64,000 nucleotides of DNA from an uncultured Chloroflexia bacterium (GTDB lineage Bacteria > Chloroflexota > Limnocylindria > Limnocylindrales > CSP1-4), in NCBI GenBank assembly GCA_963748625.1, contig CAVVJT010000010.1, forward strand, positions 1,120,001 to 1,184,000, read 5' to 3'. The translations under genes were made by a program, and so were the position numbers. This document shows positions 19,720 through 35,890 of this stretch, piece by piece. Below the pieces are notes generated by a model. The model ran no database searches. It was not told the DNA's origin and was given only the letters and a program-made list of their open reading frames with translations. The stretch's first letter is position 1. Every line of letters starts with the position of its first letter.

Positions 19720-21072
19720 CTACGGGATCAGGACGGGCGTGAAGTCCTTGTAGTGGTAGTAGTTGAGGTCCACGCGACCGACGATGCCGGGCACCGTCCC
19801 GTCCGAGGTGTACTGCCAGAACGTCCAGCTCTTGCCACCCCAGTTCGCGGCCGGCACGGTCGGGACACCTGCTGCCGGGCTCCAGTGGGCGACCCACAGC
19901 ACGGAGTAGCCGTTGGCCGCGAACCACTGGGTGTTGCCCATCCTGTTGGTCCAGAACGAGGGGGAGACGTAGATGGCCCCACGGAGGCCCGTTCGCTCGT
20001 ACACGCGCCCGAGGAAGGCCTTGACCCACTCGATGAGCTGTGCGTCGGTGAGTCCGTTGTTCTCCTCCAGGTCCAGCACGGGCAGCAGCTCGCCCTTGAC
20101 TGGGGCAGCCGTGTCGATGAAGTGGTCGGCCTCGGCCACGGCGTCGCCCACGGTGAGATCGGGCTGGGCGAAGTGGTATGCCCCGACCAGGAGGCCGTTG
20201 GCCTTGGCGCCCGAACGGCTCTTCGTGTAGGTGGGATCGACGTAGTCGATGTCCTCGGACGCCTTGAGGAAGACGAACTCCTTGCCGGCCGCCGCGACCT
20301 TTGCCCAGTCGATGGGGGCCTTGCCATCGATCTGCCAGTGGCTTATGTCGATCCCCTGGACCCAGGCCGGGGCCGGCGTCGGGGTCGGCGTGGGTGTTGG
20401 GGTGGGGGTCGGTGTTGGGGTGGGGGTCGGCGTCGGGGTGGGGGTCGCGGCGACCGGGGTCGCCAGCGTGGCCCGCGCAGCGAACAGCATGCTCACGCCG
20501 TAGAGGCTCTTCACGCTCTTCCCGTTGACCGAGGTGACCGCCCACCAGCCCGATGACGAGACGGAGCGGCCTGAGCACGACGAGGTCCAGGCGCCGCCGG
20601 AGATCCAGCCGGCCACCCCCACCCTCGTCGCTTTGGCGAGCCGGACCTTGACGGTCGCCGAGGTGCTGGTCGACGTACGCAGCCGCACGCCTGCGCACTG
20701 CGTCGCGAGCGTGGTCGTCGACGCGGCCCGGAAGAGGCCGGCCGCCGCGTACACATAGTCCCGGCCGTAGAGGCGCTTCACGCTCTTCCCGTTGACGGAG
20801 GTGATCCGCCACCAGGTGCTTCCCGAGATCCTGCCGCCACACGACGTGGACCACTTCGCCCCGCTGACGCGGGCAACGACGGTCACCCTGGCGCCCTCGG
20901 AAAGACGCCTGAGCAGCTTCGCGCCCGTGGATGGCTTCGCCCGCAGCGAGACGCCATCGCAGCGCGCGGCGAGGGCGGTCGCAGCAACGGCCGGCGACGG
21001 GAACACGGCAGTCAGGGAGGCCGCGACGAGCGCAAGGACGAGTGCTGCGGCGAGCACGGCCCGCATGGGCAT
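19720..21072 (-). CDS. Secreted GH25 lysozyme with two SH3-like repeats and a Pro/Thr linker
   Basis: Signal peptide; duplicated W..(I/V)TSVNGKSVK.LYG domains; (TP)n linker; GIDISHWQ, LDLE and WQYTS motifs. Confidence 0.9.
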   Translation of the reverse strand: MPMRAVLAAALVLALVAASLTAVFPSPAVAATALAARCDGVSLRAKPSTGAKLLRRLSEGARVTVVARVSGAKWSTSCGGRISGSTWWRITSVNGKSVKRLYGRDYVYAAAGLFRAASTTTLATQCAGVRLRTSTSTSATVKVRLAKATRVGVAGWISGGAWTSSCSGRSVSSSGWWAVTSVNGKSVKSLYGVSMLFAARATLATPVAATPTPTPTPTPTPTPTPTPTPTPTPAPAWVQGIDISHWQIDGKAPIDWAKVAAAGKEFVFLKASEDIDYVDPTYTKSRSGAKANGLLVGAYHFAQPDLTVGDAVAEADHFIDTAAPVKGELLPVLDLEENNGLTDAQLIEWVKAFLGRVYERTGLRGAIYVSPSFWTNRMGNTQWFAANGYSVLWVAHWSPAAGVPTVPAANWGGKSWTFWQYTSDGTVPGIVGRVDLNYYHYKDFTPVLIP

Positions 21073-21291
21073 GCGCGCCCCGAGGGTGCTCAGGACAGCC
21101 GGTCGGCGGGCTTCGGGCGGTTCGCGGTGCACGATGGGCGGGCCTCTTGTGCTGGTGCGGTCAAGCGTCGGGCATCCGCCGGCGCCATGCCATGGCTCCT
21201 TGGGGCCAGTCCGCGTGGACCAAGGGAACCATGCCACGATCGGCCGAACCCGTCGAGGAGGCCCGAGTGGTTGCGCGGCTACAATCGCGTT

Positions 21292-21768
21292 GTGTCCCAC
21301 TTCTACGCGCTTGATGAGGCGAATGCACTGCTGCCCGGTCTGGTCACCGTGGTCGAGCGGCTGCGCGAGCAACGTGATTCCCTGGTCGTCCTGCGCGACG
21401 CCTACAGGAACCGTGAGCATGTCGTGATGGGCGGTCTCCTGGCCATCGACCCGCTGGACGCCATCGACCCGCGCATCGTGGAGGATCCGCGCTCCGGCGT
21501 GGACGAGGCCGGCGACGAGGAGCTGCGCCGCATCCGCCTGCGCATGCGCGGCATCGTCGACCAGATGCAGGCCGATGCCGCCTGGCTTGACGCGCGCGGG
21601 ATCGTCCTGCGCGACATCGGCACCGGGCTCCTGGACTTCCCGGCGCTCGTCGCGGGGCGACCGGTCTGGCTCTGCTGGCGCTCCGGCGAAGTGGGGGTGG
21701 GCTGGTGGCACCACCAGGACGAGGGGTTCGCTGGCCGCCGGCCGATCGCCGACCTCGGGACGCCATGA
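21292..21768 (+). CDS. DUF2203 family protein
   Basis: FYALDEANALLP...LRDIGTGLLDFPA...LCWRSGE...WWH....GFAGRRP. Confidence 0.88.
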   Translation: MSHFYALDEANALLPGLVTVVERLREQRDSLVVLRDAYRNREHVVMGGLLAIDPLDAIDPRIVEDPRSGVDEAGDEELRRIRLRMRGIVDQMQADAAWLDARGIVLRDIGTGLLDFPALVAGRPVWLCWRSGEVGVGWWHHQDEGFAGRRPIADLGTP

Positions 21769-22379
21769 CCGACACGCACTGGCCCGACTACTACGCGGTC
21801 ACGGTTGACCGCCCGGCCTGGGACACCGTCATCGGCGCGGCCGACCGGTTCGAGGCCGACGGTGCGGCCCTTGGCCGGACCCCTGGCGGGCGCTTGGCCG
21901 TGGACCTTGGCTGTGGGGCCGGGCGGGACACGCGGGAGCTGCTCCGGCGCGGCTGGCGTGTGCTCGCGGTGGACGGCGAGGCGGACGCGATTGCGGCCCT
22001 GCGGGATGCCACGCCAGCCGAGGACGTCGCCCGCCTCGAGACGGCCGTTGCCGACATCGGGGCCTTCGAGCTCCCGCGGTGCGATCTCGTGGTGGCCAGC
22101 GTGAGCCTGCAGTTCCTCGACGCCACCGCATACGCGACCGTGTTCGAACGGATGGCGGCGGCGCTCCCCGCGGGTGGCCGGTTCGCGGGCTACCTGTACG
22201 GCGACAAGGATGAGGCCGCAGACGATCCCGCCTATACCTGCCCCTCGGCTGACAGGATCCGCGAGCTCCTCGCCGGGTTCGAGATCGAGCTGTGGAGCGA
22301 GCGCGAGGAGGACGGCCACATGGCGCTGGGCGACCCGCACCATCTCCACCTCATCGAGGTCATCGCCCGCCGCCGTTGA
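21765..22379 (+). CDS. Class I SAM-dependent methyltransferase
   Basis: VDLGCGAGRD motif; ATGA overlap with upstream gene. Confidence 0.88.
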   Translation: MTDTHWPDYYAVTVDRPAWDTVIGAADRFEADGAALGRTPGGRLAVDLGCGAGRDTRELLRRGWRVLAVDGEADAIAALRDATPAEDVARLETAVADIGAFELPRCDLVVASVSLQFLDATAYATVFERMAAALPAGGRFAGYLYGDKDEAADDPAYTCPSADRIRELLAGFEIELWSEREEDGHMALGDPHHLHLIEVIARRR

Positions 22380-22456
22380 GCCGCCGCCGTTGAGCTGCGG
22401 GCGACCCCGGTACACTCGGACGGCAGTCCACCCCAGTGCGAAGGAAATCGACCCGC

Positions 22457-22819
22457 ATGACACGGCCCGGGGCCATCCCCCAGCTCGACCCGCTCTACGC
22501 GGACATCCGCCGCCGCGACCCGGTACGCCCAGCCATCCTGCTCGACGTGCGCGAGGTGGACGAGTTCCGCAGGTCTCGGGCGGACGGCTGCCTGTTCATC
22601 CCCATGTCCCAGGTCCAGCTGCGGGTGTCGGAGATCCCCAAGGACCGGCCGGTCATGGTCATCTGCGCGTCGGGCAGCCGCTCGGTTGGCGTCACGTCCT
22701 TCCTGCTGGAGCAGGGCTTCGAGGATGTTGGCAGCGTGGCGGGAGGCATGGACGGCTGGCAGCGCATGGGCCTGCCCGTGAAGACCGGACCGGTCGAGGA
22801 CGGCGAAGGCCGGCTCTAG
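22457..22819 (+). CDS. Rhodanese-like domain protein
   Basis: LLDVRE..EF, ICASGSRS and GGMDGW motifs. Confidence 0.9.
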   Translation: MTRPGAIPQLDPLYADIRRRDPVRPAILLDVREVDEFRRSRADGCLFIPMSQVQLRVSEIPKDRPVMVICASGSRSVGVTSFLLEQGFEDVGSVAGGMDGWQRMGLPVKTGPVEDGEGRL

Positions 22820-22854
22820 GCCCAGCCTGCGGGCCGGTCGGGCTCCGGGGCCGT

Positions 22855-22900
22855 GACTGGCCCCCGACTGCTCCCGACTGGCCCCCGACTGCTCCCGACT
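22855..22900. repeat. 21-bp tandem repeat x2.2
   Basis: Unit GACTGGCCCCCGACTGCTCCC. Confidence 0.85.
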
Positions 22901-23079
22901 CCGGTGGGGGTCACGGACCGGCCGTCCGAGCACGGGATGTGCAGCAAACCCCGACTGGCTGCACGCCCGCCGCACAGCGCGTCTCCCGGTGACTCCCCGA
23001 TGAGTGAGTCAGCGAACGCTGCGCGGGCGGCCGTCCGTGCACGGGACGTGCGGGACACCTCGAGATCTGACGTGAATCG

Positions 23080-23116
23080 CGAAGGCCGCCGGCGGTGCCG
23101 GCGGCCTTCGTTTGTT
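23080..23116 (+). terminator. Intrinsic terminator between convergent genes
   Basis: CGAAGGCCGCCGGC-GGT-GCCGGCGGCCTTCG followed by TTTGTT. Confidence 0.8.
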
Positions 23117-23130
23117 GACGAGGAAGGCGA

Positions 23131-24594
23131 TCAGCCCTTGCCGCGCCGGCGCAGACGCTCCCACCAGCCCCGGACCTGGGGCTTGTGGTTGAACGCCCAG
23201 CCGATCAGCAGCAGGACGATGAAGTTGACGGTGCCCACGCCCGCGGCGTTGAGGTAGCCGATCTGCTGGCCGATCTCGCCCTGGAGCTGCAGCCCCGGGA
23301 CGGTGGCGCCCAGGATGCCGGCCTGGAAGAACGGAGCCTGCGGAGCAAGGTAGGTCCGGGCAACCCCGGCCGTCACGCCGTCAGCGGTGGTGCCACCGAA
23401 CAGGAAGGCGTACGGACCGTTGACCACACCGCCCGACCCCTGCACCCCGACGCCGAGGTCCGTCTGCGACAGGTTCATCCAGGCGGTGATCACGCCCTCG
23501 GCATTGGGCTGGGCCCAGTAGGTCTCACTGCGCGGCGTGACCCCGTCGGAGCCGCCCTGGACGTAGATCACGCCGTTCGACGCGAACCCGGACATGTCCG
23601 TCCGCGGACCGGGAAGGTTGGTCTCCGCGCTCGCACGCCACAAGGCGACGATCGCGTTGGGGTCATCGGCCGGCGCCGGGTTCTCCGCGTCGCCGCCGAC
23701 CAGGCCCTGCTGGACCGTGGCGACAACCTGGCCCTGGTCGTTCGTGCCACCGACGAGGGTGATCACGTCGCCCACGTGCGCGGCGAAGCCATCCACGTTG
23801 GCCTCGAACAGCGGGGTCTGCTCGGCCCAGGCGCTGTACGTGCCCTTGGTGTCCACCTGCGTCTTCCAGACGCTCTTGGTCGCAGCCGTGCCGTCGGTGC
23901 CGCCCAGGAGGACGATGCCGTCGGAGACGGTGACCGCCGCGGCACCCGCACGTGGCGCCGGAAGCGCGAGCGCATCCACGGCCGTCCACTCACCGATCGC
24001 GCCGCCGTTCTCGACGGTGAGGCTGAAGACGGTCGAGGTGGGCGCACCCGCGGCGTCGAAGCCGCCGATCACGAACAGCGTGCTGCCGACCGCGACGAAC
24101 GCGGCGTCGGAGCGGGGCTCCGGCAGCGCCGGGCCTGCGGACCAGACGTCAAGGTTGCCGCTCCCCACGACGTGGGAGATCCAGGTGTCGGCGGTTGCGG
24201 CCGCCCCGTCGGACCCGCCCGCCACGATGTAGGTGGTGCCGATGACGGCCACGGCGGCGTCGGTGGTGGCCTGCGGCAGGTTCACCTCCGGCGGCGCCGG
24301 CTCCCAGGGCAGCGTGGCGCCGGCCGGGGCCGGGCACGGGAGGGTCTCGTTCTCGGCCGGGCAGAAGCTGACCACGGGCACCTGCACGAACGGTGCCAGG
24401 GGCCACAGCTCGACCGTCCGCCCGACGGTGAAGTAGTAGGCCCGGTCTGGGATCCAGCCGAGCATCGTGATGATCACGACGAACCAGGCGAGTGCCTTGA
24501 CGATCGACCAGGGCCAGCCTTCAGCATCGAACATCCCGAACACGACGCGGCGGCGCACGGTGTGCTTCGGAGCGGGGATTGCCGTCTGAGCCAT
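23131..24594 (-). CDS. Kelch-repeat beta-propeller membrane protein
   Basis: Repeated GG...W...LP.PR Kelch motifs between N- and C-terminal TM helices; starts 4 bp after the upstream stop. Confidence 0.8.
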   Translation of the reverse strand: MAQTAIPAPKHTVRRRVVFGMFDAEGWPWSIVKALAWFVVIITMLGWIPDRAYYFTVGRTVELWPLAPFVQVPVVSFCPAENETLPCPAPAGATLPWEPAPPEVNLPQATTDAAVAVIGTTYIVAGGSDGAAATADTWISHVVGSGNLDVWSAGPALPEPRSDAAFVAVGSTLFVIGGFDAAGAPTSTVFSLTVENGGAIGEWTAVDALALPAPRAGAAAVTVSDGIVLLGGTDGTAATKSVWKTQVDTKGTYSAWAEQTPLFEANVDGFAAHVGDVITLVGGTNDQGQVVATVQQGLVGGDAENPAPADDPNAIVALWRASAETNLPGPRTDMSGFASNGVIYVQGGSDGVTPRSETYWAQPNAEGVITAWMNLSQTDLGVGVQGSGGVVNGPYAFLFGGTTADGVTAGVARTYLAPQAPFFQAGILGATVPGLQLQGEIGQQIGYLNAAGVGTVNFIVLLLIGWAFNHKPQVRGWWERLRRRGKG

Positions 24595-24598
24595 CGCG

Positions 24599-25682
24599 TC
24601 AGCCCCCGACCTTGAGGGTGCCGGTCATGTTGGGATGGACCGTGCACACGAAGGTGTAGTCGCCGGCCGGGAGGGCCTGGACGTTGTAGGTGGTCACGAT
24701 GGGCCCCGTGACGAGCTCGCCCGTGAAGATCTCCGCCCCATTGCCGTCCTTGATCGCGATGTTGTGCGGGATGCCGGCGTCCTGGTTGTCGAACTCGATC
24801 TTGAAGGGGATGTCGGCCGGGGCGGCCAGCTCGCCGTTCACGAATGCGATGTTGAGGGCGGCCTCCTTGATCACGTCACCCGCAGGCGGCAGCGACTCCC
24901 CGGGCACCTCGCCCGACGGGGCCGGCGTGGCGGCACCCGACGACGGGGCCGGCGTGGCGAACGCGTCGGTCCAGCAGTCCGGGAAGGGCGTCGCACCGGG
25001 CGCCGGCGCGTACGCGGGATCCACCCAGCCGGTGAATGTGAGCTCCTCGCCCGTGACCGGATCCAGCTTGGGCTCCCACAGCACCGGGTCCATGACCCGG
25101 AACGTGTCGTCCTTGGACGCCCGCAGGTACTCGATCAGGTAGTTGATCTGCATGTAGTTGAGCGGGACCAGGCGGGTTCCCCGTGTTCGACCAGACCGGC
25201 ATGATGCTGTCGGGATTGCCGCAGGCGTAGCGCCCGCCGGACACGAGCATGTTGCGCAGGAAGTCCGGGTTGAGGTGCGCGAACAGCTTCGACTGGTCGT
25301 TGAGCTTGGGACCCTTGCCGCCCTCGCCGTCAACGCCGTGGCACTGCGCGCAGTTGGCCTGGTACAGGTCGTAGCCACGCTCGACGGCCGTCACCTGCTG
25401 ATCCTCGGTCGCCTGGTCCAGCCGCGGCGTGACGCCAAGGGCCGGCATGCCCAGCTCGATGAAGTAGTAGACGATGACGAACAGCGCCACGAGGGTCACC
25501 GCGAGGAAGCCCACGAACCGCGCGTTCGCGGACTGGCGGACGATCCGGGCGGCGCGCTCGGGTGTCAGGTCGTTGCGGTGGGCCGACGGCGGCGCCGAGA
25601 AGCGCTCCGCGGGCGCCGGCGCGGACGCGGGCACCGGGGCGGGCAGGCGCTCCTCGGGCGGGCGGCCGGTCTGCTCGGTCAT
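24599..25682 (-). CDS. Membrane-anchored cytochrome c-cupredoxin fusion (frameshift near 25165)
   Basis: TM helix and CAQCH in one frame; IPHN...FVCTVHPNM type-1 copper ligands in the next; removing one base gives continuous NPPGPLNYMQI. Confidence 0.82.
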
Positions 25683-25722
25683 CGGACTCCTCGGTGGACG
25701 GGCGGGCGGGGGTGTGACGGGA

Positions 25723-26397
25723 TCAGATGCACCCGGTCGGGGTGCGCGGGGGCTCGATGCCGGGCTGGCCAACCGCGACCGGGAGCGGGCCGAGGGTGAT
25801 CTTGCCGGTGTCGATGGTCAGGGCGCCCTCACCGTCCACGACGACGGCGAAGCGATCCATGCCGCGCGGCGCGGGCCCGTACTGCGAGCCGTCGGCCTTC
25901 ACGCCGAGGCGGTCGTAGCGCGAGCCGTGGCACGGGCATTCGAGCCAGAAGTTCTTCTCGCACGGGTTCGGCTTGCAGCCGAGGTGCGGGCAGCGCTGGT
26001 AGAGCGCTCGGACGTTGACGTTGGTGCCATCCCCGGTGGCATCCTCGCCCGGCAGGAATGCCTGCTGGTTCGGATCGACCAGCAGCACGAACGCCTTGGC
26101 CGAGGAGTAGTAGACCGGGAAGCCCTGGTCGACCGGGAGCGCGGAGTTGTCGGCCTTGACCTGGTCGAGCGTGCCGATCTTCACCAGGCCGCCGAACTTG
26201 CCCTCGAGGTTGGGCCACAGGAAGCCGACGGTGCCGGCGGTGACCTCGATCAGCCAGAGGCCCATGGCGGCGGCCAGCGAACCGCGCAGCAGCTCGCGGC
26301 GGGACACGCCCTCGACCTGCTCGTGACGGAGGCTCTTGATCGCCTCCGTGGTCAGCGCCTGCGGCTTGGAGGCCGGCTCGACGGGGTAGTTGCTCAT
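25723..26397 (-). CDS. qcrA: Rieske 2Fe-2S subunit of Rieske/cytochrome b complex
   Basis: Tat-like SRRELL plus TM helix; CPHLGC, CPCHGS and GPAPR motifs. Confidence 0.93.
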   Translation of the reverse strand: MSNYPVEPASKPQALTTEAIKSLRHEQVEGVSRRELLRGSLAAAMGLWLIEVTAGTVGFLWPNLEGKFGGLVKIGTLDQVKADNSALPVDQGFPVYYSSAKAFVLLVDPNQQAFLPGEDATGDGTNVNVRALYQRCPHLGCKPNPCEKNFWLECPCHGSRYDRLGVKADGSQYGPAPRGMDRFAVVVDGEGALTIDTGKITLGPLPVAVGQPGIEPPRTPTGCI

Positions 26398-26416
26398 GAC
26401 TCCGGATTCCTTCGAA

Positions 26417-27034
26417 TCAGAGGGCGAAGTGAAGGCCCGGCGTCCCGATCGAGAAGAACTCGAGGTACGGGATGACGAACGCGTAGCCGGGACCGCGGAA
26501 GAAGATCCCGACGAAGGTGACGAACAGGCCGAGGCCCGCGAACAGGGAGAACAGCACGACGGCGGTCTTCCGGTCGGACGGGCGGGTGGCCAGCAGGTTG
26601 GCGCGGTCGAGGAACGGGATCAGGGCCGCACCCACGAGGACGAAGGTGGGCACGAGGACACCCGCGACGGTCGGGTGGAAGTAGGCCAGCAGCTCCTGCA
26701 GGCCCAGGAAGTACCACGGCGCCTTGGCCACCGCGGGGGTGACGTTGCCGTTGGCAAGGTCCTCGAGCGGGGCGTTCATGAACAGGCCCATCGCGAGCAG
26801 GAACACGCTCATGAGGGCCGCCGCCATGAACTCGATGGTCAGCAGGTGCGGCCAGGTCATGACCGTGTCGTCAGGTTCCTTCTGGACCCGCACGACCGCA
26901 TCCTGCTTGACCAGGGCCAGCAGGCGGTAGGGCCGTGCCGACATGGGCACGCGCTGCTTGTCGATCTCGGTGCGCCGGGTCGGATCGACCGGGGCGACGA
27001 CCCGCGTCTCGTTCGGCTGCTTCGTATCGGTCAT
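26417..27034 (-). CDS. Cytochrome b6 subunit IV / cytochrome b C-terminal subunit
   Basis: TWPHLL, APL...AN...TP and KAPWYFLGLQELL (PEWY-equivalent); three TM helices. Confidence 0.88.
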   Translation of the reverse strand: MTDTKQPNETRVVAPVDPTRRTEIDKQRVPMSARPYRLLALVKQDAVVRVQKEPDDTVMTWPHLLTIEFMAAALMSVFLLAMGLFMNAPLEDLANGNVTPAVAKAPWYFLGLQELLAYFHPTVAGVLVPTFVLVGAALIPFLDRANLLATRPSDRKTAVVLFSLFAGLGLFVTFVGIFFRGPGYAFVIPYLEFFSIGTPGLHFAL

Positions 27035-27049
27035 CTCGTCACCCCCGTC

Positions 27050-27779
27050 TCAAAGCGGGCCGCTGATGCCACCGTCCTTGCGGATCCGCCAGAAGTGGAC
27101 CGCGAGGAAGATGGCCGCAACGAGCGGGAAGACCATGATGTGCAGCACGTAGAACCGGAGCAGCGTGTTCTGGCCCGACCTCGATGCCGCCCAGGAGGAG
27201 GAACTTCGAGGGGGTGTTGAACAGCGGCGCGTAACCGGCCATGTTCGTGCCGATGGTGATGGCCCAATAGGCGATCTGGTCCCACGGGAGGAGGTAGCCC
27301 GTGAACGAGAGCATGATCGTGAGGAAGAGCAGGACCACGCCCACGACCCAGTTGAACTCGCGCGGCGGCTTGTAGGCCCCGTGGTAGAAGACCCGCATCA
27401 TGTGCAGGAAGACGAAGAACACCATCAGGTGGGCGGCCCACCGGTGGATGTTCCGGGTCAGCAGGCCGAACACCACGCGGGACTGGATGTCCAGGATGTT
27501 CGAGTAGGCCTGCGTGTCCGATGGGATGTAGAAGAACATCAGGTACACGCCGGTGACCGTCAGCACGAGGAACAGGAAGAAGCTGAGGCCGCCCAGGCAG
27601 AACGTGTAGGCGAACTTGACCGCGTGCTGCCGGACCCGCACAGGGTGCAGGTGCAGGAACACGTTGTTCATGACCGCGTACGCGCGCGACCGCTCGTCGT
27701 TCGGGTACGGGTTGCGGAAGATCGACCGCCAGACGGGTGACCGCCTGATGCTCTGGTCGACCCGCTCCAGGAAGCTCAC
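27050..27779 (-). CDS. qcrB: Cytochrome b6 (N-terminal cytochrome b; frameshift near 27175)
   Basis: FCLGG (heme ci Cys), [21 protein letters not shown]; after removing one G the frame ends LLRFYVLH...[16 protein letters not shown]. Confidence 0.92.
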
Positions 27780-29618
27780 CTACGCTCCTCCTGCCACGCC
27801 GGCGGTTCCGGCGAGTTGCGCGTCACGGTACGACTCCTTGTAGAGCCGGCCGTCGCTCGAGATCTCCTGGAGCTCGAACCGCTCCATGGTGATGGCATCG
27901 AAGGGGCACCGCTTCACGCAGAGCGCACAGCGGATGCACCGCTCTTCGTCGAGGACCATGGCTGCGCCGTTGGCCCAGCCGTATGCCTCCTCGACCTCGG
28001 GCAGCAGCCCCTCGGTCTTGAGCTGGTTCACGTCCACCATGTGGATGACCCCCTCCGGGCACACGTCGGCACACGCGCCGCACAGCACGCACCGGAACGG
28101 GTCGAACCAGATGTTGTAGTTGCACATGAGGCAGCGGGTGCTCTCGGCCACCGCCGCCGTCGTGTCGTATCCCAGTTCCACAGGGGTGTTGAAGTTGAGG
28201 ACGACGTCCTCGCGGCCACCGGGCATCCGCTGGGAGACCGGGATCACCGGGATGTGCTGGCGGGGCAGCACGTCGTACAGCTCCGGCATCTCGTGCCGCC
28301 AGGAGCTCGTGATCTTCACGTTGGGCGTGACCGTGACGTCGGTGCGCCCCGCGAGGTAGCGGTCGATCGCGTAGGCGGCCTTCTTGCCGTGGCCTGCCGA
28401 CTCGATCATGGTGGTGGGGCCGGTCACGAAGTCGCCGCAGGCGAAGACGCCGCGGATGTTGGTCGCGTACGTCGCCGGGTCAACCTTGAGGCGCCCGCGG
28501 CCGACCTCGAAGTTGGCCTCCACCGGCAGGAACGAGAGGTCCGCGGCCTGGGAGACGGCGGGGATGATCGTCTCGCAGGGGACCGTGTACTCGGATCCCG
28601 GGATCGGCACGGGCGAACGGCGGCCGGACGCATCGGGCTCGCCGAGCTTGTTGCGGATGAACGTGATGGCGACGAGCTTGCCGTCCTCGCCGATCAGCTC
28701 CACCGGGCTCACCAGGAAGTCCATGCGGACGCCCTCGAGCTCGGTCTCGCCCAGCTCCTCCTCGTCCACGACCAGCTCCGACCTGGTGCGCCGGTAGGCG
28801 ATCGAGACGTTCTTCGCGCCGAAGCGCAGGCTCGTCCGGGCGCAGTCCATGGCGGTGTAGCCGCCACCGATGACGACCACGTTCTCCCCGACCGTCATCT
28901 CCTGGCCGAGGTTGGCGCGCTTCATGAAGTCCACGCCGTACTGCACGCCTTCGAGGTCAGCGCCCGGGACGTCCAGGTACACCGGGTTCATGGCACCGGC
29001 CGTGATGGCGATGGCGTCGTAGTCCCGCTGGAGGTCCTCGAAGGGGACATCGATGCCGATGGTGGTGTCGTAGACGAACGTCACGCCCAGGCGCTCTACC
29101 AGGCGCACGTCCATCTCGATGGCGGCGCGCGGGAGGCGGAAGGCGGGAACGCCCATGAGGAGGGTGCCGCCACCGAAGGGCAGGCTGTCGAACACCGTGA
29201 CCTGGTAGCCGCGGGTGGCGAGCTCGCGGGCGACAGCCAGGCCGGCCGGGCCTGCGCCGATCACGGCGACACGCTCGTCGCGCGGGGTGATGGCCGGCAT
29301 CGCGTCCGGGATGCCCGACGCCTCGTGCCACTCCACGAGGAACCGCTTCATGGCGCGGATGGCCAGGGGCCGGTCGATGTCGCCCCGCCGGCACGCGCGC
29401 TCGCACGGCGCCGAGCACACGTAGGCGCACATCGCCGCGACCGGATTGGGCTCGCGCGCGAGGATGTAGCCCTCCTCGAAGCGGCCTTCCGCTGCGAGGT
29501 TGAGGTAGCCCCGGCAGTTGGTGCCGACGGGACAGGCCTCCTGGCACTCGATGTTGCACTGGAGCCAGGACGCGTCCACGGGCTGGACGAGGAACTCCTG
29601 GGTGTGATCGAGGGTCAC
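27780..29618 (-). CDS. GltD/NfnB-like FAD- and NAD(P)H-binding oxidoreductase with C-terminal 2[4Fe-4S] ferredoxin domain
   Basis: CQEACP, CAYVCSAPCERACRR, GAGPAG, GGGYTAMD, RCLMC, CVLCGACADVCP and CIRCALCVKRCP. Confidence 0.92.
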   Translation of the reverse strand: MTLDHTQEFLVQPVDASWLQCNIECQEACPVGTNCRGYLNLAAEGRFEEGYILAREPNPVAAMCAYVCSAPCERACRRGDIDRPLAIRAMKRFLVEWHEASGIPDAMPAITPRDERVAVIGAGPAGLAVARELATRGYQVTVFDSLPFGGGTLLMGVPAFRLPRAAIEMDVRLVERLGVTFVYDTTIGIDVPFEDLQRDYDAIAITAGAMNPVYLDVPGADLEGVQYGVDFMKRANLGQEMTVGENVVVIGGGYTAMDCARTSLRFGAKNVSIAYRRTRSELVVDEEELGETELEGVRMDFLVSPVELIGEDGKLVAITFIRNKLGEPDASGRRSPVPIPGSEYTVPCETIIPAVSQAADLSFLPVEANFEVGRGRLKVDPATYATNIRGVFACGDFVTGPTTMIESAGHGKKAAYAIDRYLAGRTDVTVTPNVKITSSWRHEMPELYDVLPRQHIPVIPVSQRMPGGREDVVLNFNTPVELGYDTTAAVAESTRCLMCNYNIWFDPFRCVLCGACADVCPEGVIHMVDVNQLKTEGLLPEVEEAYGWANGAAMVLDEERCIRCALCVKRCPFDAITMERFELQEISSDGRLYKESYRDAQLAGTAGVAGGA

Positions 29619-30005
29619 GAAGCGGACGCGCCTCTTCTGCGTGCGGTGGGCTGGGCGACGGAAACCACGACGGGGTGCTCCGCCGACCGGGGGAGATTAC
29701 CAAGCCGAAGGCGGACCTGCATAGCGAATGAGGGCCATTTCGACCCCGAAACCATGCCGGAGGTCGCCGTGGTCCCGGGCCGCGGGACGACGTGCGCGGC
29801 CCAGCAGGGTCCCGCACGAGGAGCACGCGCGGCCGGACAGCCGGACCCGCGGACGGACAGCCCGCCGGCCGTTCCCGTCCCGGCGCGACCCGGGCACTCG
29901 ACACCGTGTGCGCGGCCCGGGTTGACGACCGGGTTGACGCCCGGGGTGGGCGCAGCTACGCTGGCCCGGTCACCGGCCCCGCAGGAGGGCCGTCTCAGGA
30001 GCAGC

Positions 30006-31784
30006 GTGAACCCGTCCGAGACCGCCTTCCTGGTCCTCGGCCTCGTCATTGGCACGGCGATCGGCGTCGCACTCTGGCTGGCCGCGCGCACGTGGCCCGC
30101 CCCCCGGCGGGAGGTGCGGCTGACGATCGCTCCGCACGCGATCCCCGTTCGCAGGGCCACCACGCTGGCCACGCCGGACGGTCGACGCGACCAGGGACCG
30201 CTCCCCGGCTCCCCTGACGGCGACGCCCTCGCGCACGACCCTCGCGCCGCGCTCGCGGTCCCGGCGGCACGGCCCACGATGGTTCCCGCGTCGGCGCAGG
30301 CGATGCTTCCGGTGGTTCGAACGCCTGTTCCCAATGCCCTCACGGGAATCCCCCTCAACGCGGTGGCCGTCCCGATCGTGGCCGATGAGGTGGACCGCAT
30401 CCCAGCCGCCTCACCGATCCGGACAGGTTCGATGGCGGCGTCCAGCTCGATCGCGGCGTCCATCGTCCGCACGGCGGGGGCGGTCGCGGTCCTCGAGCAT
30501 CCGCGGACACCCCTCGCGACCCCGGGAACGAGGCCGATGGCCACCGAGCGGTCGGGCGACAGGCCTGCCGCCTCGCCCGGGACCCACGGCACACCCGCAC
30601 TGCCGGACCCGGCCGCGGTCGCCATCACGGCCGCCGGACCACTGGCTGGTGCGTGCACCGACGAGCGGCGCATGGCGGAGGAGCGGTGCGCCCTCGCCGA
30701 CGCTGCGCGGGAGGAGTCCCGACGGGTCACCGAGACCTTGCGCACGGCCCAGCGCTCCTACGACGCCCTACGTGAGCGGGTGGAGCGTGCGCAGGATGTC
30801 GGCGATCCCCGCCGCGTTGCTGACGCGAAGAGCCGCCTCCATGCGGACTTCCGGACCGCGAACGAGGCGGCCAAGGGTGCCGACGAGGCTGAGACGGCCG
30901 CCCGCGAGTGGCTCGATGCGATCAACCGCCTGAACACGGCCGTGCGTGACGCTGCCCGCCTGGCCGACGTCGGCGGCGCCGAGCTGCGCGCCCAGCTGCC
31001 CACCATCGAGCGGCTCGGGCTCGAGGCCGAGGCCGCCCGGATCGCGGCCGACAACGCTGCCGAGGGCTGCCTTGCGGCGCGCGAGCGCCTGGCCGCCTGC
31101 GAGGAGGACGCCACGCGCGCCGCCGCCGCCGCGGTCATCCCCGCTGAGCCAGACGAGGAGCACCCGTTCGCCGGGGTGTGGCCCGCCGAAGAGCCCGGCT
31201 TCGCTTCGCCACCCGCGCCGCTGGAGCCCGACGGCACCGGCGTCTCCGCGATCATTCGCGTGCTGCGCGGTGACCGCGATGCCCGTGAGCAGATCGTCGC
31301 CGCGCTTGCCGGGCCCGACCCCGACGCCCAGCGCGAGTGGCACCTGCGCCTCGCGCACCTCGTGGACGCGATCACGGCCCGGTCCATCGAGGACGGCTAT
31401 CTCGACCTGCCGGCGGACGACCACTTCTGGAACATGTTCGACGTCCGCGAGGCGCGCGACATCGTGGGCGCGCTCTCAGCCCTGGGCTTCCGCTATGACG
31501 GCATGGGCGGGTTCGCCGATGGGCGCGTGCCCGCGCTGCGCGACCTCTCGCTGGCCGTCGGGTACGCCGGCCTCGACCGCATGCGCATCCGCTCGTGGCC
31601 CCGTGAGGACGATATGGCCCGCCTGTACGCGAACGCGACCGTCGCCTGCGACGAGTGGCTCGCGACCCTTGCCGGCGACCTGTCCCTCGGCCGGATGGTG
31701 GACGCGCTCGGCGCCCGGGCGGCGGCGCTGGCGGACGTCTGGAATGCGTGGGGGCGCGTGCGGCCGGTGCTGCTGGCGGGCTAG
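30006..31784 (+). CDS. Hypothetical membrane-anchored protein with Ala/Pro-rich linker and coiled coil
   Basis: AGGAG RBS and GTG; N-terminal TM helix; helical mid-region; globular-looking C-terminus. Confidence 0.7.
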   Translation: MNPSETAFLVLGLVIGTAIGVALWLAARTWPAPRREVRLTIAPHAIPVRRATTLATPDGRRDQGPLPGSPDGDALAHDPRAALAVPAARPTMVPASAQAMLPVVRTPVPNALTGIPLNAVAVPIVADEVDRIPAASPIRTGSMAASSSIAASIVRTAGAVAVLEHPRTPLATPGTRPMATERSGDRPAASPGTHGTPALPDPAAVAITAAGPLAGACTDERRMAEERCALADAAREESRRVTETLRTAQRSYDALRERVERAQDVGDPRRVADAKSRLHADFRTANEAAKGADEAETAAREWLDAINRLNTAVRDAARLADVGGAELRAQLPTIERLGLEAEAARIAADNAAEGCLAARERLAACEEDATRAAAAAVIPAEPDEEHPFAGVWPAEEPGFASPPAPLEPDGTGVSAIIRVLRGDRDAREQIVAALAGPDPDAQREWHLRLAHLVDAITARSIEDGYLDLPADDHFWNMFDVREARDIVGALSALGFRYDGMGGFADGRVPALRDLSLAVGYAGLDRMRIRSWPREDDMARLYANATVACDEWLATLAGDLSLGRMVDALGARAAALADVWNAWGRVRPVLLAG

Positions 31785-32157
31785 TGTCTCGGACCGGCGA
31801 TGCCCGGGGGGGACCTCTCCGTGCTCGGCGTCTCCCACGGCGGCTGCTGCCGTGCGCACCCGGCGCACACACGGAGCGGTGACGTCGCTTGTTGTGCGCC
31901 CGGTGCGCCGCCCGTGCGCTCCGGCAGGGTCCCGACGGCGCGACCTGCGCACCAGCCGCGCATCGAGCGCTCCGATTGCACCGTGTGGCTGTCCGGCGCG
32001 CAGCCGGAGGGGGCAGGAGCCGGACGGCGCCAGGATGGGCGACAGGTCCCGGAACGGTGGTCCGCAGGGCCGCCGGCGAGGAGCAAGGCGGGACTCCAGG
32101 GCCAGGCGCCCGCCGGCCCCGCAGGACGCCGGCCATCCGCCATCGGACGCCCAGTGC

Positions 32158-32958
32158 TCAGGCCGGGTCGCCGCCTTCCGTCTGGGGCGGGGTCACGTGC
32201 GTGGGGCCCTCGTCCTCGGCGGCATCCTCCTCGATGACGATCACGCGGAACGCCTCGCCCGCGTCGGTCGCGATCGCCTCCCCCTCCTCGCGCGCCCACT
32301 CCCGGATGCGCAGCTCGAGCCGCTCGGGGTGACGGATCTGGCTCGCGTGCTCGCGGAGCGCGGCGAGCTTGCGATCCACGGTGGCACTCACGTCAACCCA
32401 TGCCGACGGATGGTTCGACCAGAACAGGTAGATCCGCCGGACGACCCACGGCTCCAGGCCGTCGCGCGCGAGCCACGGGAAGGACTGCGCGTTGCGGGCC
32501 GCCGGGTAGACCGCGTCGACTGCCGCCATCCCCGCGGCCCGGTGGTCGGTGTGGTTGACCCCGCCATCACCGTAGAAGAGCGTCTCCGGGTCCACCGTGA
32601 GAACGGCATCGGGCTTGAAGGTCCGGATCTCGCGCACCAGGTGCTCGCGGAGGGCGAGGTCGTTGGCGAGGGCGCCGTCGGGCTGGTGGAGGAACGCGAC
32701 CCCCGAGTAGCCGATGACCCTCGCCGCCGCCGTCTGCTCCGCCTCCCGGGTGGCGGCGAGCTCGAGCGGGTCGGCGCGCCAGTCGTCCGAGCCGGCATCC
32801 CCGCTGGTACAGCACACGAGACGTCCCACGGACCCCTCGTCGATCCACGACGCGGCGGTCGCCGCCGGCCCGAAGTCGGCATCGTCGGGGTGGGCGACGA
32901 TCACCATGAACCGCTGCGGGCGCCACGCGTGCGGGCTGGTCGGAGCGGCGTCCGCCAT
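32158..32958 (-). CDS. PIG-L family deacetylase
   Basis: AHPDD, TSGDAG, RE.EQ.AA and NHTDH motifs; AAGGAGG RBS. Confidence 0.92.
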   Translation of the reverse strand: MADAAPTSPHAWRPQRFMVIVAHPDDADFGPAATAASWIDEGSVGRLVCCTSGDAGSDDWRADPLELAATREAEQTAAARVIGYSGVAFLHQPDGALANDLALREHLVREIRTFKPDAVLTVDPETLFYGDGGVNHTDHRAAGMAAVDAVYPAARNAQSFPWLARDGLEPWVVRRIYLFWSNHPSAWVDVSATVDRKLAALREHASQIRHPERLELRIREWAREEGEAIATDAGEAFRVIVIEEDAAEDEGPTHVTPPQTEGGDPA

Positions 32959-33053
32959 GCGGATGGACCTCCTTGGCGATGACCGGGCCGGTGCGCCAGG
33001 TTCATGCATTTCGACGATGTCAGCCGTTGTCGGCGAGTGCTACATTCTGCGCC

Positions 33054-33088
33054 GAGGCTTCGCTCGTATCCCCCCACGGGCGAAGCCT
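33054..33088. terminator. Hairpin downstream of bcp
   Basis: GAGGCTTCGC...GCGAAGCCTC stem; no U-tract. Confidence 0.45.
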
Positions 33089-33122
33089 CACTCCATGTCC
33101 GGGACCCATCCGGACGGCGATG

Positions 33123-33599
33123 TCAGGCCCCCCGGGCCGCCCGCAGCGCGGCCAGGACCTGGTCGGCGTGACCCTCCGCTCGCACCTTCGGCCAGGCCTT
33201 GGCGATGCGCCCATCCGGCCCCACGAGGAAGCTTGAGCGGATGATGCCCATGTAGGTGCGGCCATAGTTCTGCTTCTCGCCCCAGGCACCGTAGGCCTCG
33301 GCGACCGCGTGGTCCTCGTCGGAGAGGAGCGTGAACGGGAGGCCGAACTTGGCGCGGAAGGCGGCGTGGCTCCCGGCCCCGTCGGGGCTGACGCCCCAGA
33401 CCTGCGCATCGAGGTCCCCAAGCTCGCCGTGGAGATCCCGGAACCCGCAGGCCTCGGTGGTGCACCCGGGCGTGTCGTCCTTGGGGTAGAAGTAGACGAC
33501 GGTCCATGCGCCCTGGCGTGCGCTCAGACGGTGGACGGTGCCCTGATCGTCGGGAAGCGCGACCTCGGGGGCCAGGTCGCCGGCCTGCGGCATGCTCAT
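33123..33599 (-). CDS. bcp: Thioredoxin-dependent peroxiredoxin BCP
   Basis: YFYPKDDTPGCTTEAC, GVSPD and F.LLSD motifs. Confidence 0.95.
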   Translation of the reverse strand: MSMPQAGDLAPEVALPDDQGTVHRLSARQGAWTVVYFYPKDDTPGCTTEACGFRDLHGELGDLDAQVWGVSPDGAGSHAAFRAKFGLPFTLLSDEDHAVAEAYGAWGEKQNYGRTYMGIIRSSFLVGPDGRIAKAWPKVRAEGHADQVLAALRAARGA

Positions 33600-34360
33600 G
33601 GCCGCGAGGATAGCGGCGCGGGCGCCGGGGCGGGTTCGGCGTGTCCCCAGGCGCTCTCGACGAGCAGGAGCCTGCCGCTGCCGACCGTCACGGCCGCGTC
33701 CGGCGCCGTGCGCACGTTCGACAGGCCACGGGCGGGACCGGTGCGCAGCGGCTCCTGGGCCAGCGGGTAGCGCAGGCCGCTCGTGGTGATGCCCTCCGCA
33801 TCCCCACCGAGGGGGAGGAGCGACACCAGCGCCCCAACCGGACCGGGCAGCGGTCGAGTCACGGGTCGTCCGCTGGGACCGGGGGCGGTCACCAGGGAGA
33901 CCCGTGTGCGCGCGTCGAGGAGGCACACCGCAACGGCACCGAGGCCCGGGTGGGCGAGGAGCCACACGTTGGCAAGTGCATGGTCGAGGCGTGGTCCACC
34001 GAGCGCACCGACGACGGTCACCCGGGTTGCGCCCCGGCGGACCGCCTCGAGGAGGGCCAGCTCCGTGTCCGATTCGTCCTTGTCGACGCTGGAGCGCAGG
34101 ATCGGGACGCCCGCCGCCCGGACGGCGGCCACGGTCCCGGCGTCGAGCGAGTCCAGGTCACCGAGCAGGAGCGCGGGTCTGAAGTCGAGCGCCCGCGCCC
34201 GCAGCCAGCCTCCATCCGCGGCGATCACGAACGCCGCGTCATCGTCCCAGCCGGGCCACGCGGCATCGAGCGCGGCCCTGGGTGGCACATCGCCGTCGGC
34301 GACCACGATGACGTGCCGACCCTCCTGCTCGGGGAGTCGGCTTGCGTGTCCGGTGTCCAT
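33596..34360 (-). CDS. thiN: Thiamine diphosphokinase
   Basis: IAADGG, GDLDS, DKDESDTELAL, GG.RLDHALAN, GLRYPL and GLSN motifs. Confidence 0.93.
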   Translation of the reverse strand: MDTGHASRLPEQEGRHVIVVADGDVPPRAALDAAWPGWDDDAAFVIAADGGWLRARALDFRPALLLGDLDSLDAGTVAAVRAAGVPILRSSVDKDESDTELALLEAVRRGATRVTVVGALGGPRLDHALANVWLLAHPGLGAVAVCLLDARTRVSLVTAPGPSGRPVTRPLPGPVGALVSLLPLGGDAEGITTSGLRYPLAQEPLRTGPARGLSNVRTAPDAAVTVGSGRLLLVESAWGHAEPAPAPAPLSSRP

Positions 34361-34418
34361 CGGTCCAAGCCTACTCGCCGGCGGCTTCGGGCGAGCGGGT
34401 TCGTGTATGCTCGCGGGC

Positions 34419-34979
34419 GTGCCGGATTCCCCGTTTCCTCCTGCCGTCCAGCGGGTCGTTGACGCTGCCGCCCGCAAGGGCGTGACGCTCGACATCCTCC
34501 TGTCCGACGAGTCCGCGCACACGGCGGAGCAGGCAGCGGCGGCCGTCGGCGTGGAGCTCGGCCAGATCGTCAAGTCGCTGGTCTTCGTCGCTCCGGGCGA
34601 GCATGGCCTCGAACCGGTCCTCTGCCTCGTCTCCGGGCCCAACCGGGTGGACATGGCCCGCCTCGCCGCGGTGCTCGGCGAACCCGACGTCCGGCGCGCC
34701 ACCGCCAACGAGGCACGGGAGCTCACCGGGTTCTCGATCGGCGGCATCCCGCCCATCGGTCACGGGCGGGCCATCCGCGTGATCATGGATCCCGACCTCG
34801 GGCGATTCCAGGTGGTGTGGGCGGCTGCCGGCACGCCGACCGCGGTGTTCCCGGTCGCGCCGGGCACGCTGCGCATGCTGGCCAACGCCAACGTCGCCCC
34901 GGTCTGCGAGGAGCGCGACCGGCCGGTGCCCGACCTCCCTGGCTACATGGCCGCGCCGCAGCCCAATGGTGGCGCCTGA
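34419..34979 (+). CDS. YbaK/EbsC family aminoacyl-tRNA deacylase
   Basis: TAEQAA, QIVKSLVF, TGFSIGGIPPIGH and WAAAG motifs. Confidence 0.92.
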   Translation: MPDSPFPPAVQRVVDAAARKGVTLDILLSDESAHTAEQAAAAVGVELGQIVKSLVFVAPGEHGLEPVLCLVSGPNRVDMARLAAVLGEPDVRRATANEARELTGFSIGGIPPIGHGRAIRVIMDPDLGRFQVVWAAAGTPTAVFPVAPGTLRMLANANVAPVCEERDRPVPDLPGYMAAPQPNGGA

Positions 34980-35010
34980 CGCCGCCTGCCGACCACGGAG
35001 CCTCCATCCG

Positions 35011-35580
35011 ATGACGATCGAACCGCGGCACGCGGTCATCACGTTCCCCGGCGGCCTCCGCGCCGCCGTTCGGTGGACAGGTTCAGGCCAGGCACCGGCG
35101 TTGTTCGCCCTCACCGAGGCCGGCGGCCCGCTCACCGACCTGGGCGAGCTCACCGGTGCGGAGCCCGACCGCCGCTGCCGGGCCGAGCTGCGGGTCGACA
35201 CGCCGGCCGGGCCTTGGACGGTGCGCCTCGCATCGCTGGTGAACGACGAGCCCGCAGCCCTGGCCTGGGACACCGAAGCCCTGCTGGTGGTCAAGTACGG
35301 GTTCCACGTCTACGCCTTCGAGGCACGCACGGGCGTGCTGCGCTGGAGCCACCGGTCGGCCACCCCGGTCCTGGTGCTCCTCGGGTCGTCGCGCCTGCCC
35401 CACGTGCTTGCCCAGGCTGAGATCGAGACGTTCGCCCTCCGCGGGGACGGCGAGGTTGCATGGCGGGTCGCCCACTCCGACGTCGTCACAGCGGCGGAGC
35501 TGGTGGGCGGCAGCCTCGTGCTGACGAGCTTCAGCGGCCAGGTGCAAGCGCTCGACCCGCTGACGGGACGGGGCAGCTGA
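35011..35580 (+). CDS. Hypothetical protein with PQQ-like beta-propeller repeats
   Basis: YAFEARTGVLRW, GEVAW and ALDPLTG repeats. Confidence 0.6.
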   Translation: MTIEPRHAVITFPGGLRAAVRWTGSGQAPALFALTEAGGPLTDLGELTGAEPDRRCRAELRVDTPAGPWTVRLASLVNDEPAALAWDTEALLVVKYGFHVYAFEARTGVLRWSHRSATPVLVLLGSSRLPHVLAQAEIETFALRGDGEVAWRVAHSDVVTAAELVGGSLVLTSFSGQVQALDPLTGRGS

Positions 35581-35590
35581 AGCCACGACG

Positions 35591-35699
35591 TTGTCCACCG
35601 CGCACGGCGACCCGAGTGCGCTTGCGCTTGCGCTGGGGGCCGAGCCTGTGGAACGACGGTGGATAAGTCACCCGGGCCGCCGCCGCAATAGGTGGACAA
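35591..35699. promoter_or_regulatory. Cluster of DnaA-box-like 9-mers
   Basis: TTGTCCACC (35591), TGTGGAACG (35647), GGTGGATAA (35658), GGTGGACAA (35691). Confidence 0.45.
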
Positions 35700-35890
35700 C
35701 CCGATTGACCCGACGCCGGCCGCACCCGTAGCGTGGAACGCGGTCCGAAGGGGCTGAGCGATGCTAACGGCCGCGATGACATCAAGGTCCACGCGTCGAG
35801 TAGGTTCCTTCGGATCATTGATTCCCGGCGCACGACGCCTTGACCAGCCGGTGCCCCTGTCCCGCGGACGGCATGTGCAATGATCGCGCC

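Follow-up and report, generated by a model that had tools for sequence, protein, structure and literature searches.

Anaerobic ammonium-oxidizing (anammox) bacteria encode Rieske/cytochrome b complexes that carry a pyridine nucleotide-dependent flavoprotein. In Kuenenia stuttgartiensis, the Kuste4569-4574 and Kustd1480-1485 complexes have a short b6-type cytochrome b with a subunit IV, a heme cN with a Glu ligand and a nearby His, a Ser/Tyr Rieske protein, hexa- or octaheme cytochromes, and an operon-encoded cytoplasmic oxidoreductase with flavin adenine dinucleotide (FAD), NAD(P) and four Fe–S clusters (PMC12954380). The accessible text of that study proposes that these complexes produce NAD(P)H and includes a model of an interface heme, and it reports no assay of their activity. 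Short cytochromes b with a CxGG motif likewise co-occur with large NAD(P)-binding Fe–S oxidoreductases in subfamily G of Dibrova et al., which spans many phyla, including Ktedonobacteria (PMC5600118, accessible part). We found a variant of this complex type in a Chloroflexota bacterium of the class Limnocylindria, encoded by a six-gene operon within a 64,000-nucleotide stretch (hereafter the window) of contig CAVVJT010000010.1. The complex type has thus already been described from genomes, and the Limnocylindria version differs in having a cytochrome c–cupredoxin fusion and a Kelch protein. As the first-pass annotation of this DNA had supposed, no characterized complex with this subunit set emerged from our literature searches. 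No paper on the operon in Limnocylindria was found either, while supplementary trees of subscription papers or 2013 reviews may show such operons. The accessible passages of PMC13212565 and PMC6169038 describe Limnocylindria as mainly heterotrophic or with respiratory add-ons, and none of them deals with this complex.

We propose that the flavoprotein gives an intact Q-cycle enzyme a port for NADP(H), through which electrons pass from NADPH to menaquinone, and assign this reading a probability of roughly 0.45. Whatever the direction of electron flow, the flavoprotein is quite likely to be a partner of the complex. The genes are listed in Table 1. Their common orientation and close spacing (at most 40 bp) had been pointed out in the first-pass annotation and are confirmed, with gaps of 0, 15, 19, 40 and 4 bp from the flavoprotein gene to the Kelch gene. 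The GTG start of the cytochrome b gene (27779) directly adjoins the TAG stop of the flavoprotein gene, and its ribosome-binding site, AGGAGG, lies inside the last codons of that gene, again as annotated. A +1 frameshift is present in a short G run of the assembled cytochrome b gene (near 27177) and of the assembled cytochrome c–cupredoxin gene (near 25167). The two halves share one frame in 68 of 70 related loci for cytochrome b and in 62 of 66 for the cytochrome c–cupredoxin, and contigs from public runs (related strains, other samples) lack the extra base in four of four cases at 27177 and in two of four at 25167. Thus, these frameshifts are most likely assembly errors, as is most likely a third one found in the NuoF-like gene of the host.

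Table 1. The six genes of the Limnocylindria operon, with positions in the window.
Product	Position	Strand	Domain or structural assignment
GltD/StnC-type FAD flavoprotein with fused C-terminal 2x[4Fe–4S] ferredoxin, 612 residues	27780..29618	-	Pfam Fer4_20, Pyr_redox_2, Fer4
Short four-helix cytochrome b (b6 type; 242 residues in relatives)	27050..27779	-	Pfam Cytochrome_B; best PDB matches are cytochrome b6
Subunit IV	26417..27034	-	Pfam Cytochrom_B_C
Rieske [2Fe–2S] protein, twin-arginine signal	25723..26397	-	Pfam Rieske
Membrane-anchored monoheme cytochrome c fused to type-1 copper cupredoxin	24599..25682	-	Pfam cytochrome c and cupredoxin
Kelch beta-propeller between two membrane helices	23131..24594	-	Pfam Kelch; AlphaFold model

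The operon arrangement is strongly conserved in close relatives, for which our counts refer to the best 80 loci of the 737 relatives listed (at least 737 in all). The cytochrome b gene directly follows the flavoprotein gene in 79 of these loci, and the full six-gene order is kept in 61. Among the other 19 loci, 17 reach a contig edge, one (L077) lacks the Kelch gene and one (L041) lacks the cytochrome b gene. Since the full order is so widely kept and most exceptions are contig edges, the arrangement is not due to chance. The flavoprotein–cytochrome b junction is translationally coupled (−4 or 0 bp) in 78 of 85 cases. The flavoprotein gene is present in 105 of 121 sampled genomes of the class, and in 99 of these a cytochrome b match is listed no more than 1.5 kb downstream; this cytochrome b tally rests on the matches listed, with 53 more outside them. 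The remaining six genomes offer no counter-example, as the two genes are adjacent at a contig end in two (L086 and L154) and the other four are not judgeable from the listed matches. The class tallies include three genomes flagged as unpublished (G355, G359 and G374), on which none of the conclusions rests. In each of the five class families sampled (f1, f2, f3, f69 and f70), the flavoprotein gene stands directly before the cytochrome b gene. The order flavoprotein, cytochrome b, subunit IV, Rieske and cytochrome c is found in f1, f2, f3 and f69, and its first three genes are seen so in f70. Among the loci examined, the Kelch gene occurs only in f1 and f2; those of f3 and f69 lack it and encode a diheme cytochrome, which marks the copper and Kelch parts as local additions. 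At the Kelch position, f3 and f69 have a small conserved gene for a membrane protein (L111:4835-5416 and L152:4439-4930), and the f3 gene weakly matches the N-terminal helix of the Kelch protein (probability 62%).

The best PDB matches of the flavoprotein are 8oh5 (StnC of StnABC) and 9bov and 9n5u (NfnA of NfnABC). These proteins have the same GltD-like NADPH/FAD domain and a Lys as proximal-cluster ligand, and StnC is described as non-bifurcating in the accessible text (PMC10482914). At the position of the StnC lysine ligand, the flavoprotein has Lys91, which is invariant in 62 sequences, and Arg161 is conserved at the flavin N5 position. Four [4Fe–4S] clusters are predicted, and the second Rossmann fold is of the NADP(H) type (GGGYTAMD at 251 and YRRT at 275). 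Motifs of the GGGYTAMD/YRRT type mark a preference for NADP. Unlike StnC and NfnA as described in the accessible text (PMC10482914), the protein has no N-terminal [2Fe–2S] domain, FdhF-like domain or StnAB partners, and its wire would end in a fused ferredoxin facing the membrane cytochrome. Given the likeness to StnC and NfnA, the NADP-type motif, the invariant proximal-cluster Lys and the fused ferredoxin, the most plausible reading of this protein is a linear wire that connects NADP(H) with the hemes on the inner side. By description, it resembles the anammox flavoproteins Kuste4570 and Kustd1483. The protein scores 256.6 bits against the NCBIfam model of GltD (cut-off 482.95) and misses all NCBIfam cut-offs. 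We rejected an assignment as the glutamate synthase small subunit GltD because of this low score, the lack of gltB alongside and the fused ferredoxin.

The first-pass annotation had considered ferredoxin as an electron acceptor, and the flavoprotein might accordingly be a bifurcating NfnB-like enzyme, or a partner of free ferredoxin instead of NADP(H). The NfnB-fold homology and the conserved Arg161 would agree with this. However, Lys rather than Glu stands at the proximal-cluster position, matching non-bifurcating StnC, so that the flavin probably has no ferredoxin-reducing bifurcating site; the operon has no NfnA partner, and the protein combines a fused ferredoxin with a retained NADP motif. 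We consider this alternative highly improbable, and the NfnAB (NfnSL) bifurcating transhydrogenase was rejected on the same Lys91 and the missing NfnA. An 853-residue open reading frame in L004 that looked like a natural flavoprotein–cytochrome b fusion was also set aside, as it is created by an additional G within a G run, in one assembly only. A search with this frame gave 1 match among 8000 scored candidates at a very strict E of 1e-200 and was not used as evidence; more distant fusions may exist. Distant GltD–ferredoxin homologues of 736-740 residues, with an extra N-terminal domain and a small neighbor gene of no assigned role, occur in L277, L280 and L281 (families f17 and f7).

The membrane core has the features of the b6f type, with a split four-helix cytochrome b and subunit IV, the Cys of CxGG and four heme-b His residues. 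The split and the heme ci Cys (FCLGG) had been recognized in the first-pass annotation, and this Cys (C61) is invariant in 40 sequences together with H112, H126, H213 and H228. Subunit IV contains WP-H-LL-x-x-E, which provides the His and Glu beside heme ci, and the Qo motif APWY; WP-H-L-x-x-x-E is found in 82 of 82 subunit IV sequences. Box II of the Rieske protein (CPCHGSRY) has both Ser and Tyr, and GSxY is present in 74 of 75 Rieske sequences. Its two best PDB matches are the anammox Rieske proteins 9rk4 and 9rk3, supporting the anammox analogy that had been drawn from the sequence. The Glu ligand with its nearby His and the Ser/Tyr Rieske are thus shared with the anammox complexes (PMC12954380), as is the cytoplasmic oxidoreductase with four Fe–S clusters, although the former features are not specific to flavoprotein-linked complexes. 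In NCBIfam searches, no operon protein rises above a cut-off, and cytochrome b and subunit IV score highest against ExtP and ExtQ. The C-terminal Arg-Lys of cytochrome b was rejected as a marker of flavoprotein linkage, as cytochrome b6 has it too.

We assign the operon to subfamily G by its description rather than by a tree with the sequences of PMC5600118. "Chloroflexi" is absent from the main text of that account, and neither Limnocylindria nor a cupredoxin or Kelch subunit is met in its accessible part (PMC5600118). Compared with the anammox complexes, the Limnocylindria operon has a monoheme cytochrome c–cupredoxin and a Kelch protein instead of hexa- or octaheme cytochromes, and a subunit IV of about 205 residues where the anammox counterpart is modelled with five helices (PMC12954380, accessible text). 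The host is an aerobic heterotroph with an A-type oxidase and a single such operon in its genome, in contrast to the anaerobic lithotrophic anammox bacteria. Cytochrome b6f with bound ferredoxin:NADP+ reductase likewise joins a heme ci complex to an inner-side NADPH-linked flavoprotein (PMC5600118, accessible part), but that flavoprotein has an unrelated fold and the system is photosynthetic, with cytochrome f and plastocyanin on the outside.

On the outer side, the fusion protein has CxxCH with a Met ligand and the copper pattern His...Cys-x2-His-x2-Met. This type-1 copper ligand pattern is kept in 52 of 53 intact fusions, supporting the heme c/copper protein as the acceptor of the high-potential electron, as had been suggested. 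The AlphaFold model of the Kelch protein, made with an alignment, has a mean pLDDT of 91, and its top 50 Foldseek matches are generic Kelch domains. Only structural residues are conserved; no His or Tyr is invariant in 54 Kelch sequences, and the Tyr/His copper ligands of galactose/glyoxal oxidases are not among their conserved residues. Because it has no conserved metal-ligand residues, the Kelch protein is probably a scaffold.

A second, distant lineage repeats the linkage, with a flavoprotein of 37% identity beside the complex genes in 61 of 80 metagenome loci. Here, the flavoprotein gene is followed by genes for a Rieske protein, a fused long cytochrome b and a hexaheme cytochrome; the outer cytochrome of flavoprotein-linked operons thus ranges from monoheme in the host and diheme in f3 and f69 to hexaheme, and only the last reaches the six to eight hemes of the anammox type. 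The cytochrome b of the second lineage has an HxHP motif in 55 of 55 loci and lacks the heme ci Cys (CxGG) in 55 of 55. As the flavoprotein is kept without this Cys, heme ci is not the required link between flavoprotein and complex, and the low-potential route via heme ci proposed in the first-pass annotation is not a necessary one.

The same cytochrome b subfamily was found across Chloroflexota, where it offers natural controls. None of 20 chosen loci from other Chloroflexota families has a flavoprotein gene nearby, yet HxHP is present in 19 and CxGG in 17 of them, and nearly all have the Rieske GSxY. In a profile search of 34 chosen genomes, ten (f47, f39, f32 and f26) have no GltD-family match. 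As these Chloroflexota have the same core without the flavoprotein, the membrane core would seem to work alone and the flavoprotein to be an add-on. In the operon's cytochrome b, HxHP lies at the N terminus, and its H43 and H45, which would be candidate ligands of a dimer-interface heme b like the one proposed for the anammox complexes, are invariant in 62 sequences. The first-pass annotation had proposed electron flow from quinol to NADP+; the features that could speak for it, the Rieske Ser/Tyr and HxHP, are indeed present, but they are shared with flavoprotein-less lineages, so that neither appears to indicate NADP+ reduction. HxHP was rejected as a marker of flavoprotein linkage on the same loci, which also weaken the Rieske Ser/Tyr as evidence of direction.

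The 34-genome search also found a full-length flavoprotein orthologue elsewhere in the genome in f23, f27, f8, f15 and f50. In subunit IV, a conserved cytoplasmic segment, about 25 residues long and preceding the first helix, tracks the presence of the flavoprotein. We scored this segment against the Limnocylindria segments with a threshold of 25, leaving out two loci without a subunit IV match. The threshold is reached in 16 of 18 genomes with a flavoprotein encoded elsewhere, in none of 14 without one and in none of three with only distant homologues; two incomplete genomes without a flavoprotein match are segment-positive. Families f69 and f70 keep the segment yet group with flavoprotein-less families (support 0.80) in FastTree trees, for which paralogues served as the root and inner support was weak. 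The N-terminal segment of subunit IV is therefore a candidate docking site for the flavoprotein, a lead rather than a proof. After the subfamily survey and the segment scoring, we dropped an earlier view that the flavoproteins of other Chloroflexota (40-43% identity) are unrelated to cytochrome b.

The host genome (98% complete, 7.7% contamination) has only one Rieske/cytochrome b operon that we could find and one heme-copper oxidase, of A type, whose subunit II has an extra C-terminal cupredoxin (L136:10788-11840) and no heme c. Together with the operon fusion, this cupredoxin suggests a copper-to-copper relay. Two stand-alone cupredoxins (L139:6486-7061 and L140:6894-7115), 61% and 45% identical to the operon copper domain, are possible mobile carriers. 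The host also has cytochrome bd and the transhydrogenase subunit PntB, the latter being present in 116 of 121 class genomes. MenB above its cut-off supports menaquinone as the quinone, and no futalosine-pathway or RuBisCO match was found in the host genome. In family f1, the flavoprotein, a strong cytochrome b match and COX1 are all missing from the same eight of 35 genomes (G151, G169, G178, G187, G205, G237, G345 and G354; genera g4 and g5) and all present in the other 27. These eight, possibly low-oxygen specialists, keep PntB and the GltD-type complex I subunit. Many Limnocylindria have a second cytochrome b operon of other types without the flavoprotein (L163, L164, L165 and L166), with a long cytochrome b beside COX1 or a cytochrome b beside decaheme cytochromes. 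Two NrfD-family clusters occur in the host (C7:55783-59075 and C4:821918-824893), one of them with a hexaheme cytochrome and a ferredoxin, and neither resembles a full alternative complex III.

The complex I operon of the class (L137:4844-9472, contig C7 of the host) has a nuoI split around a NuoE-like piece, its NuoF-like gene is degenerate, with altered flavin mononucleotide/NADH and cluster motifs in the protein, and it includes a [2Fe–2S]–GltD–ferredoxin subunit with an NADP-type motif. This GltD-type subunit is found in 115 of 121 class genomes and a canonical NuoF in 1 of 61. Complex I of the class is thus probably NADPH-fed, and with the GltD-type subunit class-wide and canonical NuoF nearly absent, the respiratory chain appears to be NADPH-centred. 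Outside the class, 11 of 37 chosen genomes have the GltD-type subunit, all of them flavoprotein-positive and probably of one clade, and in 11 of 12 loci the subunit has a NuoF-like neighbor. Seven genomes of the flavoprotein-positive families f15, f42 and f50 lack it.

From these features, we propose that the operon would encode the host's complex III, a b6f-type menaquinol:cytochrome c/cupredoxin oxidoreductase of subfamily G, in which the Rieske protein, heme c and blue copper would hand the high-potential electron on to the A-type oxidase. As an add-on cytoplasmic subunit, the flavoprotein would dock on the N-terminal segment of subunit IV and the inner face of cytochrome b, and its FAD and four [4Fe–4S] clusters would connect NADP(H) with the low-potential hemes. 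Net flow would most likely run downhill from NADPH to the hemes on the inner side and to the Qi site and would thereby prime the Q-cycle or add to it, and the port would form a non-pumping second entry to an NADPH-centred chain. The proposal builds on the observed gene content, conservation, motifs and co-occurrence, from which binding, cofactors, NADP specificity and direction are inferred. We favor this direction because it is downhill, the Qi features are intact, PntAB supplies NADPH and no autotrophy was found. At the Qi/heme ci site, the complex retains Cys, Glu and His; so do its relatives without the flavoprotein, in which an ordinary Q-cycle presumably operates.

Several observations weigh against this proposal, and some of them concern the partnership itself. 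In seven Chloroflexota families (f23, f27, f8, f15, f42, f45 and f50), the flavoprotein gene lies apart from the qcr genes. At L041 (8001-12455), a flavoprotein of 82% identity is encoded in a nuo operon that lacks cytochrome b. The segment is missing in family f42 despite its flavoprotein, and it differs in the second lineage. The segment correlation comes from few independent lineages, most positive families forming one clade with f1-f3 (support 0.98), and the co-loss with COX1 amounts to only one or two events. The unlinked genes, L041 and the flavoprotein-less cores of f47, f39, f32 and f26 would suit a co-transcribed soluble NADPH:acceptor oxidoreductase that is no subunit, the membrane part being an ordinary subfamily G complex III. 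The translational coupling, the linkage in two distant lineages, the co-loss and the segment tracking argue otherwise, as does the co-migration of all subunits reported in Kuenenia (PMC12954380, accessible text, citing de Almeida 2016), and we regard a soluble enzyme as unlikely. The L041 flavoprotein gene stands directly before a GltD-type complex I subunit gene and nuoJKLMN, reflecting either misassembly or a real rearrangement.

The other points against our proposal concern the direction. NADPH entry at Qi bypasses proton-pumping complex I, with 6 instead of 10 charges per NADPH by our bookkeeping, and Hauser et al. reject flow from NADPH to quinone for Kuenenia on the ground of this bypass (PMC12954380, accessible text). 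Moreover, streamlined genomes of 1.0-1.4 Mb keep the operon (5 of 5), which would be odd for a wasteful bypass. A close rival, which we hold to be possible though tentative, runs from quinol to NADP+: bifurcation at Qo would let one electron pass by way of the Rieske protein, heme c and copper to O2 while the other is lifted across the membrane onto NADP+, and the NADPH would be reoxidized by an NADPH-type complex I, an extended Q-cycle tapping the menaquinol–O2 gap. The closest solved Rieske proteins, those of anammox, have potentials of +303 and +335 mV (PMC12954380, accessible text), and the Rieske protein here has both Ser and Tyr. The GltD-type subunit in 115 of 121 class genomes, with canonical NuoF in 1 of 61, means that complex I could use NADPH, and outside the class 11 of 11 genomes with this subunit (among 37 selected) also encode the flavoprotein. 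Streamlined genomes retain the operon, genomes that lost it have lost the oxidase too, and the yield would be 9-10 charges per quinol against 6 if the acceptor lies between about +320-390 and +515 mV at 150 mV. On the other hand, GSxY and HxHP are equally found without the flavoprotein, menaquinone would compete for the electron at a Qi site that looks intact, PntAB already makes NADPH, and f15, f42 and f50 have the flavoprotein without the GltD-type subunit. The energetics are also marginal, the uphill flow needing an acceptor above about +320 to +390 mV at a proton motive force of 150 mV (assumed textbook potentials). In its full form, Limnocylindria would run an NADPH-looped chain, in which complex III reduces NADP+ by O2-driven Qo bifurcation, NADPH-fed complex I pumps and the electron returns to menaquinone. 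We think this loop rather unlikely; if it is true, each quinol would yield about 9-10 charges instead of 6, and the subunit IV segment would be a dock also for flavoproteins encoded elsewhere in other Chloroflexota genomes.

Contigs from RNA runs of relatives cover 30 of 30 bins and some span gene junctions, although contigs cannot prove a single transcript. No sigma-70-like promoter or terminator above chance was detected, no Rfam match lies within 20000-36000 of the window, and a plasmid search gave no close operon. A plus-strand open frame of 1322 residues without a Pfam match (27816-31784) runs antisense over the flavoprotein gene. A real gene, for a membrane and coiled-coil protein, is likely in the 3' part alone (from about 30000), which is kept upstream of the operon in L159 and L162. 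A rhodanese-domain gene (22457-22819) converges with the operon end and has the same place in L162 and L080.

NAD(P)H exchange by a Rieske/cytochrome b complex has been proposed for anammox bacteria for more than a decade and was not demonstrated in the literature we found. The Limnocylindria complex is small and belongs to the core of an abundant class of soil and freshwater aerobes. Nature also provides controls in the form of the same core without the flavoprotein, flavoproteins encoded elsewhere and one lineage without heme ci, and with these controls and a candidate docking segment, the question becomes testable. Either direction of electron flow, if true, would be a new wiring of complex III, and the looped version, if true, would be a new mode of energy conservation in menaquinone-based aerobic respiration.

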